A DNA stretch of 64,000 nt. Source: Escherichia phage p000y. The stretch lies in sequence record MK047718.1. One strand, 5' to 3'. The position numbers were made by a program, and so were the translations under genes. Numbering within the stretch: position 1 is the first letter of the stretch; each line of letters opens with the position of its first letter. The notes below the pieces were generated by a model. The model was given only the letters and a program-made list of their open reading frames with translations. It made no database searches and was not told the DNA's origin. Positions 3,310 through 32,665 of the stretch are shown here, piece after piece.

Positions 3310-3767
3310 AAACTTTTAAAGAACGTTTAGCTCTGTTAGATAAAGCTTTGACGCGTGAGACTCCGGAAAGTCTGGCTGCTAAATTAGCTTCTTACGGTGG
3401 TGAATATACAGAACAAAATGTTTTAGATGAAGTTCCTGAAATCTGTTGGCAGACTCTGTATTGGGATGAAAACCAAAAGTATCAACGACGAATTGTCTGC
3501 GCAGCCAACCGTTTTAAATTAAAAGATGGACGAACTCTTATTATTCCAGGTGCTCGTCATTATTCTAAAGATATGGCAGAAGTTTTAGATGTAGTTAAAC
3601 CTCAATTAGTTACTCAACAAGTTTGTGATGATGACCAAGGGTTTATTGACCAGTATAGTAATTATTGGACACGTGAAGAAGCAATGATTATTGCAACTTA
3701 CGCTGGACAAGTACGTATTGAACGTGGTGGTAATGAAAAAGAACTTTACTCTGAGGACCTTTACTAA
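3306..3767 (+). CDS. Hypothetical protein (153 aa)
   Basis: ORF overlapping previous stop (ATGA); tight operon packing. Confidence 0.55.
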
Positions 3768-4048
3768 TGAATCTTAAACAACTCCAGATTGATGCTATTG
3801 AAGCCCACATTAATCATATCAAACGCCTGAATGCTATGATGGAAGAAAATTATGGTATGTATGCTAATCAGCCTGGTTGGGATGCTTTAGACCATCCTTA
3901 TTTGGTTAATTTATGTAAAGGTGATACGTTAGCAATTATTCGTGATGGGTTAAAACCTTTCTTGCGCGACATGTATATTAAAATGAACGAAGAAATTATT
4001 AGCTCGTTGCAATATCAATTAAGGAAATTAGATGATGAGAATAATTGA
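3767..4048 (+). CDS. Hypothetical protein (93 aa)
   Basis: ORF with TAATG start overlap. Confidence 0.5.
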   Translation: MNLKQLQIDAIEAHINHIKRLNAMMEENYGMYANQPGWDALDHPYLVNLCKGDTLAIIRDGLKPFLRDMYIKMNEEIISSLQYQLRKLDDENN

Positions 4049-4250
4049 TTCTAAAGCAGATTATTTTAATTCTGTTAATGATAAGAATAAAGCTTTAATT
4101 CGCCACTTTATTACTGAGATGGGTTATACTGACTCTAAAGATTTGAAAGAGCACATTATCGAATGTTCTGTGGCTAAAAAGTTTTCTTTCACAGACAAAT
4201 GTTTAAATGAGGTTATAAATCATTATGAACAATCTTGTAGCAAAACATGA
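4032..4250 (+). CDS. Hypothetical protein (72 aa)
   Basis: ORF with RBS AGGAAA. Confidence 0.45.
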   Translation: MMRIIDSKADYFNSVNDKNKALIRHFITEMGYTDSKDLKEHIIECSVAKKFSFTDKCLNEVINHYEQSCSKT

Positions 4251-4333
4251 TTTCAATAAGGCTTCTGTCCATAAGGACAAAAAGAAATCAGAACTTCAAT
4301 CTAAACGTAAACAAAAACATAAGGGTAAAGACT

Positions 4334-4633
4334 ATGCTTACTAAAATCAAAGAAAATCCTGCCACTGAACTTGTTATTCGATGTGAAGAACTTGCAGAGC
4401 TTTATCAGGTTAACCGAGAAGTGTGTCGTAGTGTTATCGTAGATATGGAAGATGAAGTCTGTTCTCGTATTCCTTTTAGTGTCGATTTCAATCACATGAA
4501 GCCCGGTGAAATCACTATCGTCTTTGGTTCTGACTATACTGAAGAACGGGCTCTTAACGTCCTAGAATATGAAATGTCGTTTTTCGACATACAGGACTAT
4601 ATTGATAGTTATAAGGAACGATATGAGTCATAA
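4334..4633 (+). CDS. Small acidic protein (99 aa), possible Arn-like anti-restriction protein
   Basis: Start trimmed to internal ATG with RBS AAGGGTAAAG; strongly acidic; position near asiA where T4 encodes arn; identity not verified. Confidence 0.45.
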   Translation: MLTKIKENPATELVIRCEELAELYQVNREVCRSVIVDMEDEVCSRIPFSVDFNHMKPGEITIVFGSDYTEERALNVLEYEMSFFDIQDYIDSYKERYES

Positions 4634-4784
4634 TCTTCAGAACGTAGTAGAGGCCGAACGTGAGCGCGAGGCTTTAGTCTATAATGAACTATTAGTTCAA
4701 TTCTTGGTCTTACACTCGTATGAACAGGAAGACTATACCAATTACGTTAAAAGCGTAGAAAAAGCCGTTTACAATCAACACTGA
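4623..4784 (+). CDS. Hypothetical small protein (53 aa)
   Basis: ATG overlaps upstream stop; ORF-track N-terminal extension trimmed. Confidence 0.35.
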   Translation: MSHNLQNVVEAEREREALVYNELLVQFLVLHSYEQEDYTNYVKSVEKAVYNQH

Positions 4785-4830
4785 TAATGGTACTATATCC
4801 ATATCAACTAAGTGGAATGAATAAAACGTT

Positions 4831-5103
4831 ATGAATAAAGACATTGAAATCGTACGTGAAATTATTACTATTGCTTCTATTTTGATTAAATTCTCTAGGG
4901 AAGATATTGTTGAAGACCGAGCAAGTTTCATCGGATTCTTGAATGAGATTGGAATTAAAAAAGATGGTCGGCAGCTAAATCAGAATTCTTTTAGAAAACT
5001 AATTACAAATTTAACTGCCGAAGAAAAGAAAACACTGATTAGTGAATTCAATGAAGGTTTTGAAAATATTTATCGTCATTTAGCGATGTATTCTAACAAC
5101 TAA
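4831..5103 (+). CDS. asiA: AsiA anti-sigma-70 factor
   Basis: 90 aa; MNKDIEIVREIITIASILIKFSREDIVE... closely matches remembered T4 AsiA. Confidence 0.9.
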   Translation: MNKDIEIVREIITIASILIKFSREDIVEDRASFIGFLNEIGIKKDGRQLNQNSFRKLITNLTAEEKKTLISEFNEGFENIYRHLAMYSNN

Positions 5104-28609: not shown

Positions 28610-29696
<1,087 letters not shown>

Positions 29697-30378: not shown

Positions 30379-30410
30379 GTTTACAACATGGTGGAGTTGT
30401 GATACTATAA
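30379..30410 (+). promoter_or_regulatory. Early promoter (GTTTAC ... TACTAT) with stem GGTGGAGTT/AACTCTACC
   Basis: Likely drives ORF 30437 and the DAHP synthase gene. Confidence 0.5.
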
Positions 30411-30436: not shown

Positions 30437-30673
30437 ATGCTAAGTGAAAACCCAATTACAGTACACGAATTTCAGATTAAAGTAAAAGAATTTGCTCAAG
30501 CACTCATCAATAAAGTGTCTGAACGTTTCCAAGATGCAACATTACGAGTTATTCAAGAATCTCCACGTTCTTTTCTCATAATCGTTAATCCTAAAGATGG
30601 TGACCAAATTACTAATCTTAAATTAGGCAGTGATGGTCTTGTTGAAGCAACTCGAGTATATGGAACACTATAA
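30437..30673 (+). CDS. Hypothetical protein (78 aa)
   Basis: ORF with RBS GAGGAAA. Confidence 0.55.
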   Translation: MLSENPITVHEFQIKVKEFAQALINKVSERFQDATLRVIQESPRSFLIIVNPKDGDQITNLKLGSDGLVEATRVYGTL

Positions 30674-30793
30674 TGAGAGCTATCTCATTACTATCGAGAA
30701 TGGTCATAAATCTGAGCACTACCAACTTAGCCTGTCTAATCCGGTTAAAGGTATTGTTGAATCAGAATCTGTTTATATCTCCTAAGGATTGTT

Positions 30794-31786
30794 ATGTTAC
30801 CTGTCGTCGGAAAACTTATTTCTCCAAAAGAACTGGCTGAGATTATTCCTTTGTCGGAAGCTTACGCATCACAAGTGGCTTCTCATCGCGAACAAGTTAA
30901 TTCGATTATGAACGGTGAAGACCCACGCAAACTTATTGTTGTAGGTCCTTGTTCAATTCATGACCCTATTGCTGCTGTTGAATACGGCAAACGTCTGGCT
31001 GAACTTCAAACTCGTCTTCCTAATGTTCTGTTAGTGATGCGCGTTTATTTTGAAAAGCCTCGAACTACCGTAGGTTGGAAAGGTCTTGTAAATGATCCAT
31101 ATCTTGACGGAAGTTTTGATATGAACCACGGTCTTATAGTTGCACGAACATTGTGTCGTAAACTTCTACGTATGGGACTTCCATTAGCAACTGAAGTATT
31201 AGACCCATTCACGATTAAGTATCTTTCTGGTATTTTCTCATGGGTTGCTATTGGCGCCCGTACGACTGAAAGTCAGACACATCGTGAAATTGCTTCAGGT
31301 CTACCGATGTGCGTAGGCTTCAAGAACGCAACCAATGGTTCTATTAAAGTAGCTACAGACGCGATGTATAGCGCCGCCTGGCCTCATCGGTATATGGGTA
31401 TGGACGTCGATGGTACTGTAGGCATTGTTGAAGCTGAAGGTAATCAGAATACGCATATCGTATTGCGTGGCGGGACCAACGGCCCGAACTATCATTCTTC
31501 TGATATTCAAGAAGCTTCTAACAAAGCAAGTGCAGTAGGTCTGAATCATTATGTAATGGTTGACTGTAGCCATGCAAACGCTGCTGGGCATTATAGCAAT
31601 CAAATTGGTATTGGTAAAAATTTAGCAGCTAATGATTTGGTCAAAGGAATTATGATAGAATCATTCCTACATGAAGGAAATCAAAAAATTTCTGATAATA
31701 TGTCCTATGGCGTTTCCGTTACCGATGCGTGCATCAGTTGGGAACAAACTAAAGAGCTGTTAACTTATATTAATAAGGTTCAATAA
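30794..31786 (+). CDS. 3-deoxy-D-arabino-heptulosonate-7-phosphate (DAHP) synthase, class I (AroG/AroF/AroH-like)
   Basis: 330 aa; colinear with E. coli AroG incl. catalytic motifs GPCSIHD, VYFEKPRTTVGWKGL, IGARTTESQ, HREIASGL, CSHAN, ESFLHEGNQ, TDACI; RBS AAGGA. Confidence 0.85.
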   Translation: MLPVVGKLISPKELAEIIPLSEAYASQVASHREQVNSIMNGEDPRKLIVVGPCSIHDPIAAVEYGKRLAELQTRLPNVLLVMRVYFEKPRTTVGWKGLVNDPYLDGSFDMNHGLIVARTLCRKLLRMGLPLATEVLDPFTIKYLSGIFSWVAIGARTTESQTHREIASGLPMCVGFKNATNGSIKVATDAMYSAAWPHRYMGMDVDGTVGIVEAEGNQNTHIVLRGGTNGPNYHSSDIQEASNKASAVGLNHYVMVDCSHANAAGHYSNQIGIGKNLAANDLVKGIMIESFLHEGNQKISDNMSYGVSVTDACISWEQTKELLTYINKVQ

Positions 31787-32367
31787 TGAAAGCTAGCACA
31801 TATCTTCAAATTGCTTATTTGATTTCTCAAGAATCAAAATGTTGTTCATGGAAAGTTGGTGCCGTCATTGAAAAAGATGGACGCATTATTTCTACAGGTT
31901 ATAATGGCTCTCCTTCAGGTGGTACAAACTGTTGCGAACATGCATCCGAAAACGGTTGGTTGAAGAATAAACCAAGCCCGGTCATCGTTGCTGGGCATAA
32001 AGAAGGCACTACAGCATTTGGACGGGTGGATAATTTTGTTTTGGCTAAAGAACATCGAGCGGCTCATAGTGCATGGTCTGCTAATAATGAAATCCATGCT
32101 GAATTGAATGCAATTTTGTTTGCAGCTCGTAAAGGTAATTCTATTGAAGGTGCTACGTTATATACGACGCTTTCTCCGTGTCCTGATTGCACTAAAGCTA
32201 TTACACAGTCAGGTATTAAAAAGGTTGTATACGCAGAATTATATGACAGATCTCCTGAAAATTGGGCAGACATTCTAAAACAAGCCGGTATTGAAGTAAT
32301 TCAGTACTCTCGTAATAATCTTCGTTCTCTGAATTGGGAACAAATCCGAAACTTTTGTGGTGAATAA
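31786..32367 (+). CDS. cd: dCMP deaminase
   Basis: 193 aa; zinc-binding HAELNAI ... PCPDC deaminase signature; size equals T4 Cd. Confidence 0.85.
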   Translation: MKASTYLQIAYLISQESKCCSWKVGAVIEKDGRIISTGYNGSPSGGTNCCEHASENGWLKNKPSPVIVAGHKEGTTAFGRVDNFVLAKEHRAAHSAWSANNEIHAELNAILFAARKGNSIEGATLYTTLSPCPDCTKAITQSGIKKVVYAELYDRSPENWADILKQAGIEVIQYSRNNLRSLNWEQIRNFCGE

Positions 32368-32368
32368 T

Positions 32369-32665
32369 ATGATTTTAACTGAACAAGAGACTATGGTTCT
32401 TCGTGAACGTATTAAAACTATTCTGTCTGTAGGCGTTCATTGTGTTGTATTTGAAAAGGCTAACGGTGAGGTACGCACTATGTTTGCTTCGCGCGATGAA
32501 CTTGAAGTCAAATATGAAAATAACAATCCGGCAACAGAAGTTCGTTCTGAACCTCGTGAATCAGTTCGAGCATTCGATACCAAGTTAGGTCAGTGGCGTT
32601 CTTTCCGCCTTGATAAAGTAATTTCGGTTGATGGTACTCCGGTAGAACGTTTGCTTCTTATGTAA
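32369..32665 (+). CDS. Hypothetical protein (98 aa)
   Basis: Trimmed to ATG (ORF track begins at an upstream GTG). Confidence 0.5.
   Translation: MILTEQETMVLRERIKTILSVGVHCVVFEKANGEVRTMFASRDELEVKYENNNPATEVRSEPRESVRAFDTKLGQWRSFRLDKVISVDGTPVERLLLM

Follow-up and report, generated by a model that had tools for sequence, protein, structure and literature searches.

A DAHP synthase gene shared by T4-like enterobacterial phages carries clade-wide substitutions in the inhibitor pocket and is predicted to escape aromatic amino-acid feedback

Feedback regulation of the type I DAHP synthases (phospho-2-dehydro-3-deoxyheptonate aldolases) is illustrated by Escherichia coli AroG, in which inhibition by phenylalanine (Phe) is exerted through an inhibitor pocket. 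As reviewed in PMC9529685, the equivalents of Q151, D155, S180 and F209 are inhibitor-site residues: Q151 and S180 contact the inhibitor main chain, and D155 makes a stabilising salt bridge. The feedback-resistant AroG variants listed in the same review are P150L, S180F, F209A/S and V221A, and it describes P150L, S180F and F209A/S as abolishing inhibition by Phe. For the yeast enzyme Aro4, Q166K is a published feedback-resistant allele (PMC5879953). The presence of a DAHP synthase gene in T4-like phages of enterobacteria is also already known: RefSeq carries annotated copies from Straboviridae (Mosigvirus, Kanagawavirus, Winklervirus and Bragavirus) and from Marfavirus, a genome paper mentions the DAHP synthase domain (PMC8022965), and in 2025 a paper without experiments counted the Kanagawavirus copy among the auxiliary metabolic genes, with a role in making aromatic amino acids (PMC11845039). 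Here we analyse the copy carried by Escherichia phage p000y, using a 64,000-nucleotide stretch of its sequence record MK047718.1 (hereafter ‘the window’). While the presence of the gene alone adds nothing to what is established, comparison of its inhibitor pocket with that of the bacterial enzymes does: the phage proteins as a clade have replaced residues that are almost invariant in bacteria, most of them at the very positions implicated in feedback inhibition.

The open reading frame (ORF) encodes a type I-alpha DAHP synthase, and this family call is secure. It matches Pfam PF00793 (DAHP_synth_1) with E = 7.4e-75 and 251.8 bits (cut-off 25.5) over profile positions 8–269 of 270, NCBIfam TIGR00034 (aroFGH) with 427 bits (cut-off 173.2), and PHROG 5045 (‘phospho-2-dehydro-3-deoxyheptonate aldolase’, of the category ‘moron, auxiliary metabolic gene and host takeover’) with E = 9.4e-182 and 604 bits, residues 1–330 aligning with profile positions 8–337 of 341. 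The other branch of PF00793, 3-deoxy-D-manno-octulosonate 8-phosphate (KDO8P) synthase, was ruled out, NCBIfam at E ≤ 0.001 returning aroFGH-type models only. A first-pass annotation, made by eye from the sequence, had described the product as an intact class I DAHP synthase and as AroG-like. While the first part of this description is borne out by the Pfam, NCBIfam and Protein Data Bank (PDB) matches and by the presence of every motif residue it had named on a computed alignment, the second needs correcting. The ORF remains well below the threshold of the AroG equivalog model NF006723 for the Phe-sensitive isoenzyme (364 bits, cut-off 568) and also below that of the AroH model NF009396 for the tryptophan (Trp)-sensitive isoenzyme (384.8 bits, cut-off 463), but exceeds that of the subfamily NF009395 (PRK12755; 454.8 bits, cut-off 343), which is AroF-type as judged by the best PDB match. 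Its best solved relative is E. coli AroF (6AGM, E = 1.5e-104), with AroG second (1GG1, E = 2e-91), and in computed alignments with the MG1655 proteins identity is 51% to AroF, 47% to AroG and 44% to AroH.

The catalytic machinery is intact. The four metal ligands, C53 (in GPCSIHD), H260 (CSHAN), E289 (ESFLHEGNQ) and D311 (TDACI), are the equivalents of AroG C61, H268, E302 and D326 and are invariant in 25 out of 25 phage-clade sequences. The residues that bind phosphoenolpyruvate (PEP) and erythrose-4-phosphate (E4P) – R83, K88 (KPRTT), R90, R156, K177 and R225 – correspond to AroG R92, K97, R99, R165, K186 and R234, and all ten catalytic residues checked are identical in the window protein and the 24 other members of the clade, which span 55–99% identity. 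The AlphaFold model of the phage enzyme (predicted local distance difference test score, pLDDT, 92.8; predicted template modelling score, pTM, 0.92) is a (beta/alpha)8 barrel with an N-terminal extension; it retains the beta6a/beta6b hairpin (strands 198–203 and 209–214) and, as judged by Foldseek, superimposes on the Neisseria meningitidis and E. coli DAHP synthases (4HSO, 8E0U and 1KFL) with a TM score of 0.96 and a root-mean-square deviation of 1.4 Å. The phage enzyme would be expected to condense PEP and E4P to DAHP.

The regulatory pocket tells a different story. In an unbiased scan, 103 alignment positions were at least 90% conserved both within the phage clade (n = 25) and within bacteria (n = 98), and only six of these differ between the two groups: P150I, Q151K, D155G, S180P, F209Y and T223A in AroG numbering, that is I141, K142, G146, P171, Y200 and A214 of the window protein, which accordingly lacks the canonical inhibitor pocket. 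Five of the six are on the lists compiled in PMC9529685 (hypergeometric p = 8e-6, or p = 1e-4 for the list of inhibitor-site residues alone). A Fisher test on segments of the alignment likewise gives a low value (p = 3.5e-6), although it deserves less weight because the segments were partly drawn after the result had been seen. Furthermore, alignment to the 1HFB sequence pairs phage K142 with Q166 of yeast Aro4, so the phage clade naturally has the Gln-to-Lys change of ARO4-Q166K.

The N-terminus, too, is altered. It had been estimated to be about 20 residues shorter than that of AroG; the alignment, which pairs phage L2 with AroG I10, gives 8, and the rest of the 20-residue difference in length is made up by gaps of 1, 5 and 2–3 residues, an insertion of a single residue and a C-terminus that is also shorter. 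An in-frame stop 12 codons 5' of the ATG, with no ATG, GTG or TTG between them, means that the short N-terminus is real and cannot be longer. The shortening is shared by the clade: the catalytic Cys is found at positions 49–53 in all phage proteins and at position 59 or beyond in 98 out of 98 bacterial ones. The truncation takes away the equivalents of AroG D6 and D7, which are reported for the 1KFL structure to contribute to the binding of Phe from the neighbouring subunit.

With its first eight residues lost and six near-invariant pocket positions replaced, the enzyme most likely ignores Phe, tyrosine (Tyr) and Trp. The first-pass annotation had suggested escape from feedback control on the strength of the N-terminal shortening; while this shortening is smaller than was thought, the clade-wide pocket substitutions make the proposal a stronger one, and deregulation towards the three amino acids is probably the best reading of the sequence comparison. 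Overall, we assign a probability of roughly 60% to the following: the gene encodes an active, metal-dependent DAHP synthase of a phage-specific clade, expressed early and, owing to its rebuilt pocket, insensitive to Phe, Tyr and Trp. An ordinary Tyr- or Phe-sensitive DAHP synthase, acting in infection merely as extra enzyme dosage, is in our judgement unlikely. It would sit well with the match to the AroF-type subfamily model, with the Gly shared by G202 and the Tyr-sensitive AroF and Aro4, and with the retention of the hairpin and of hydrophobic pocket residues, but would have to accommodate the simultaneous alteration throughout the clade of P150, S180 and F209, at each of which a single change abolishes inhibition in E. 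coli, and of the Q151 contact, where the change is identical to that of the feedback-resistant ARO4-Q166K; it would also have to accommodate an N-terminus that is shortened in all phage proteins.

Several observations weigh against the view that the enzyme is early-expressed and deregulated. The hydrophobic pocket residues L170 and V212 are kept, as is G202, which is as in AroF. Some bacterial DAHP synthases, of the Acinetobacter type, also have Pro at the S180 position, and S180P alone is therefore no proof of deregulation. Our literature search turned up neither a functional study of a phage DAHP synthase nor any assay of the activity or inhibition of one. The gene is dispensable, as neither T4 nor RB69 has it and Mosigvirus G53 carries a frameshifted copy. 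A scan with the promoter consensus yielded 14 sites against 17.4 expected, which is not above chance, so the promoter call rests on alignment with T4. Finally, the pocket is less variable than the rest of the protein in phages (entropy of 0.58 vs 0.89 bits; the values for bacteria are 1.00 vs 1.12 bits). The low entropy in phages indicates a pocket that is constrained and not decaying, as would suit either a structural lock of the active state or a new ligand; decay would explain it less well than constraint on a site that possibly binds a ligand.

The last point bears directly on the possibility that the enzyme is active and that its pocket has been retuned to another effector, e.g. chorismate or prephenate, a folate or a nucleotide, coupling shikimate-pathway entry to a phage-relevant signal. 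We regard this as improbable, although the pattern of conservation is suggestive: the replaced residues are near-invariant over phage proteins that are 55–99% identical, the segment 144–155 is almost fixed (VLDPFTIKYLSG), the charge of the site has shifted through loss of N-terminal acidic residues and gain of a Lys, and the enzyme keeps its regulatory hairpin along with most of its N-terminal extension. In addition, a pyrimidine deoxynucleotide gene adjoins the DAHP synthase gene in two viral settings that are unrelated to each other: here it is cd, and in the IMG/VR contig IMGVR_UViG_3300028829_003504 it is that for thymidylate kinase. Location at the subunit interface, some 8.5 Å from the active site, could also explain the conservation; the sequence points to no candidate ligand, and the Gln-to-Lys change at the equivalent position simply abolishes inhibition in yeast Aro4. 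A more specific and rather doubtful form of the idea is that allostery has been kept and the Phe/Tyr pocket might now be the site that ties the flux to chorismate, and then to folate, to the deoxynucleotide programme of the phage. Were the pocket converted in this way, the repeated siting of viral DAHP synthase genes by those for dCMP deaminase and thymidylate kinase would be meaningful.

To place the gene among phages, we searched 50,697 phage records by tblastn and found a homologue covering at least 80% of the protein in 212 of them, most being annotated as DAHP synthase, AroF or AroG. The homologues are at least 95% identical in 139 records (up to 100%; phages of Escherichia and Shigella) and 60–80% identical in 47 (phages of Klebsiella, Serratia, Edwardsiella, Enterobacter and Erwinia), with Proteus phages at about 58%. 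The 4.26-kb block from pseT to gp31 is 98–99% identical to that of many Mosigvirus genomes, identifying the window phage as a Mosigvirus. T4-like phages of Klebsiella, Serratia, Edwardsiella and Proteus have relatives of 55–77% identity at the equivalent locus, and the pseT–cd interval houses the gene in Mosigvirus mobillu, Kanagawavirus PEi26, Marfavirus P545, Winklervirus X20 and Bragavirus PM2. Where cd.2 and cd are annotated, as they are for PEi26 and mobillu, they are its immediate neighbours. As the first-pass annotation had stated, T4 has only small cd.x ORFs here: cd.1–cd.5 are located between pseT and cd, with cd.1 in the place of the DAHP synthase gene. RB69, the Mosigvirus type phage, is without the gene, and its cd.2 abuts cd. 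Absence from T4 and RB69 agrees with the earlier designation as an accessory metabolic gene. The novelty implied there has not survived, given the 212 mostly annotated records, the shared locus in at least five genera and the auxiliary metabolic role already in print (PMC11845039); the first-pass annotation had itself named orthologues from numerous T4-like phages in this position as taking away the novelty and leaving the function.

Two of the Mosigvirus genomes deserve a separate comment. In RB69 (NC_004928, 7743–8503), where the gene is missing and cd.2 abuts cd, the annotated cd is 23 residues shorter than that of T4 and the window, which could be a deletion scar. In Escherichia phage vB_EcoM_G53 (MK327943), the DAHP synthase gene is frameshifted by a 55-bp tandem duplication corresponding to about position 31486 of the window and is annotated as a misc_feature; this is a natural null allele, unless the duplication is an error of assembly.

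The 25 phage-clade proteins are monophyletic in a neighbour-joining tree (bootstrap 100/100). The nearest bacterial proteins, at 52–55% identity, are scattered over unrelated phyla (Planctomycetota, Kiritimatiellota and enterobacterial AroF), and the best match among representative genomes of 185,579 bacterial species is 52% identical. Since these relatives are mixed and the tree resolves no sister group of the phage clade, no donor lineage can be named. The GC content of the gene is 41.5%, vs 37.9% for the window. The clade was probably inherited together with the pseT–cd early gene block of T4-like enterobacterial phages. Against the orthologues of Edwardsiella, Klebsiella, Serratia and Proteus phages, the ratio of nonsynonymous to synonymous substitution rates (dN/dS) is 0.14–0.21, indicating long-term purifying selection; we relied on these between-genus comparisons because differences from close relatives (9 from SHSML-52-1, 7 of them nonsynonymous, and 3 from mobillu) are too few to interpret. 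A decaying passenger gene of no function for the phage might be absent from some relatives and broken in another, as is the case for T4, RB69 and G53, and might accumulate nonsynonymous changes, as the seven out of nine would suggest. However, nine differences are too few for an estimate of selection, and the low between-genus dN/dS, the invariance of the catalytic residues across the clade and the retention of the gene at a single locus by five genera or more render such decay highly improbable.

The features discussed here and below are collected in Table 1. The promoter-like site upstream of cd.2 matches the consensus in 9 out of 12 positions and aligns base for base with the cd.3/cd.2 intergenic region of T4, for which the T4 record annotates the early promoter Pe133295. 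We found no terminator on the + strand between 28000 and 33500, and no late-promoter motif near the DAHP synthase gene. The stop codon of the gene overlaps the start codon of cd (TAATG), suggesting translational coupling of the two. Co-transcription from an early promoter at 30379 had been proposed in the first-pass annotation; correspondence of the site to the annotated T4 promoter speaks for this, while the scan, taken alone, does not. It is plausible that the gene shares an early transcript with cd.2 and cd: transcription would start early from the promoter 5' of cd.2, and translation would be coupled to that of dCMP deaminase.

Table 1. Positions in the window of the DAHP synthase gene, its functional codons and its neighbours
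Feature	Position	Strand	Basis or remark
DAHP synthase coding sequence, 330 aa, type I-alpha, AroF-like	30794–31786 including stop	+	profile, PDB and model matches; start ATG 30794, stop TAA 31784–31786
Shine-Dalgarno AAGGA	30784–30788	+	5 nt 5' of the DAHP synthase ATG; read from sequence
Cys53 codon, metal ligand (AroG C61)	30950–30952	+	alignment
I141-K142-Y-L-S-G146 codons, remodelled alpha-3 part of the pocket (AroG P150, Q151...D155)	31214–31231	+	
Pro171 codon (AroG S180 equivalent)	31304–31306	+	alignment
Y200–A214 codons, beta6a/beta6b regulatory hairpin with F209Y and T223A (AroG numbering)	31391–31435	+	
Promoter-like site TTTACA-17-TACTAT, TG upstream	30380–30408	+	coincides with the early promoter annotated between cd.3 and cd.2 in T4
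pseT (HAD_PNKP + AAA_33)	28797–29696		5' of the DAHP synthase gene
cd.2-like ORF, DUF7320, phrog_1504	30437–30673	+	first gene after the promoter-like site
Possible 41-aa ORF (51 aa from upstream GTG), coding uncertain	30660–30785	+	annotated in G53, not in mobillu
cd, dCMP deaminase, Pfam dCMP_cyt_deam_1	31786–32367	+	ATG overlaps the DAHP synthase stop (TAATG)

Upstream of the DAHP synthase gene, four small ORFs match T4-type cd.x families in Pfam and PHROG, and the possible 41-residue ORF overlaps the cd.2 stop and fills the 120-nt gap ahead of the gene. Downstream, cd is followed by a 31.1-like WYL_2 protein and then by gp31 (Cpn10).

In an infected cell, a DAHP synthase with these properties might keep carbon flowing into the shikimate/chorismate pathway, and so towards aromatic amino acids and possibly para-aminobenzoic acid (pABA)/folate and quinones, at a time when the AroF, AroG and AroH enzymes of the host would be feedback-inhibited and no longer renewed. 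Alternatively, the gain could come from the consumption of PEP and E4P: an unregulated sink would redirect central carbon metabolism, e.g. by drawing the non-oxidative pentose-phosphate reactions to pentose phosphates for nucleotides or by lowering PEP. This is very unlikely in our estimation. That the gene sits among those of nucleotide metabolism, and that a presumably deregulated first enzyme is encoded while the neighbouring ORFs scanned gave no match to any family of the shikimate pathway, could be read in its favour; its testable sequence features are the same as those of a product-making enzyme, and the latter is the simpler reading because the host provides the downstream shikimate enzymes.

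DAHP synthases also occur in other viruses. The unrelated Aeromonas phage HJ05 (OQ594355, 79 kb) encodes a separate one at 3399–4562 that is 38% identical, is annotated as hypothetical and has intact catalytic residues; its pocket is non-canonical, with A, H, P, P and V at AroG positions 150, 151, 155, 180 and 209. The 261-kb contig IMGVR_UViG_3300028829_003504 carries a 48% identical DAHP synthase at 3956–5005, with P, N, H, P, Y and S at the six signature positions; its gene has that for a type IB topoisomerase on one side and that for thymidylate kinase on the other, and a NUDIX gene lies upstream, making it the second viral DAHP synthase gene to adjoin a pyrimidine nucleotide gene. Convergent pocket change in HJ05 and this contig cannot be claimed, a bacterial subfamily of the Acinetobacter type also having Pro at S180. 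Many giant-virus metagenome-assembled genomes (the GVMAG contigs of IMG/VR) encode a DAHP synthase with the canonical pocket (PQDSFT); about 15 of these ORFs are approximately 590–680 residues long, which suggests fusions, although upstream extension of the ORFs may overstate their length. We discarded the record ‘Acinetobacter phage MD-2021a’ (CAKLQH020000043) as contamination: it is bacterial chromosome, with clpS, clpA, fadH and bioH by aroF.

Some further observations concern the surrounding region. Several GenBank records of relatives label the 31.1-like WYL_2/SH3 beta-barrel protein (32357–32665, + strand) ‘tail fiber protein’; this is probably an erroneous annotation that has spread between records, in line with a weak match to phrog_10657. 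The region from pseT to gp31 is a hotspot for the insertion of mobile endonucleases: MK373778 (vB_EcoM_WFbE185) has about 760 bp extra, with a ‘putative intron endonuclease’, in an otherwise collinear pseT–gp31 block, and in Proteus phage PM2 a homing endonuclease gene follows shortly after pseT. On both strands of the window, the late-promoter motif TATAAATA is found 19 times vs 7.3 expected, a count reached in 0 out of 100 shuffles; most copies are on the – strand at 43–64 kb, which fits a late-gene block there.

What the comparison adds is a natural lineage that combines substitutions which engineers make singly when removing feedback inhibition. Should biochemistry confirm the deregulation, this would be a clear case of viral takeover of a host pathway at its committed and most tightly controlled step through removal of the brake, and the enzyme would be a ready-made feedback-resistant catalyst for the production of aromatic compounds. 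It also raises the question of which chorismate-derived product limits infections of the T-even type, for which the natural nulls RB69 and G53 could be of help.

Set against the known enzymes, the phage protein is closest to AroF (6AGM/6AGL), with which it shares 51% identity over the full length, the fold, the four metal ligands, the PEP/E4P residues, the Gly at the specificity position (AroF G212, phage G202) and the match to NF009395. It differs from AroF in an N-terminus that is about 9 residues shorter, in lacking 5 and 3 internal residues close to the barrel strands at the C-terminal end, and in having I, K, G, P and Y in place of AroF P151, Q152, D156, S181 and F210. AroG (1KFL/1QR7) is 47% identical and superimposes on the model with the same TM score, but the phage enzyme falls outside the AroG equivalog model. 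It is altered at the same positions as the engineered feedback-resistant AroG variants P150L, S180F and F209A/S, although the residues are I, P and Y instead of L, F and A/S, and, unlike in the engineered enzymes, they co-occur and are fixed in a natural lineage. With Aro4-Q166K of Saccharomyces cerevisiae it shares the equivalent Gln-to-Lys change, at K142, whereas the yeast enzyme is eukaryotic, 370 residues long and has a longer N-terminus, and Q166K is a laboratory mutation. Finally, the window protein is a member of PHROG 5045 and of the group formed by the RefSeq proteins of Straboviridae and Marfavirus, encoded at the same locus, and among the Mosigvirus copies it has no distinguishing feature: the rebuilt pocket belongs to the clade.

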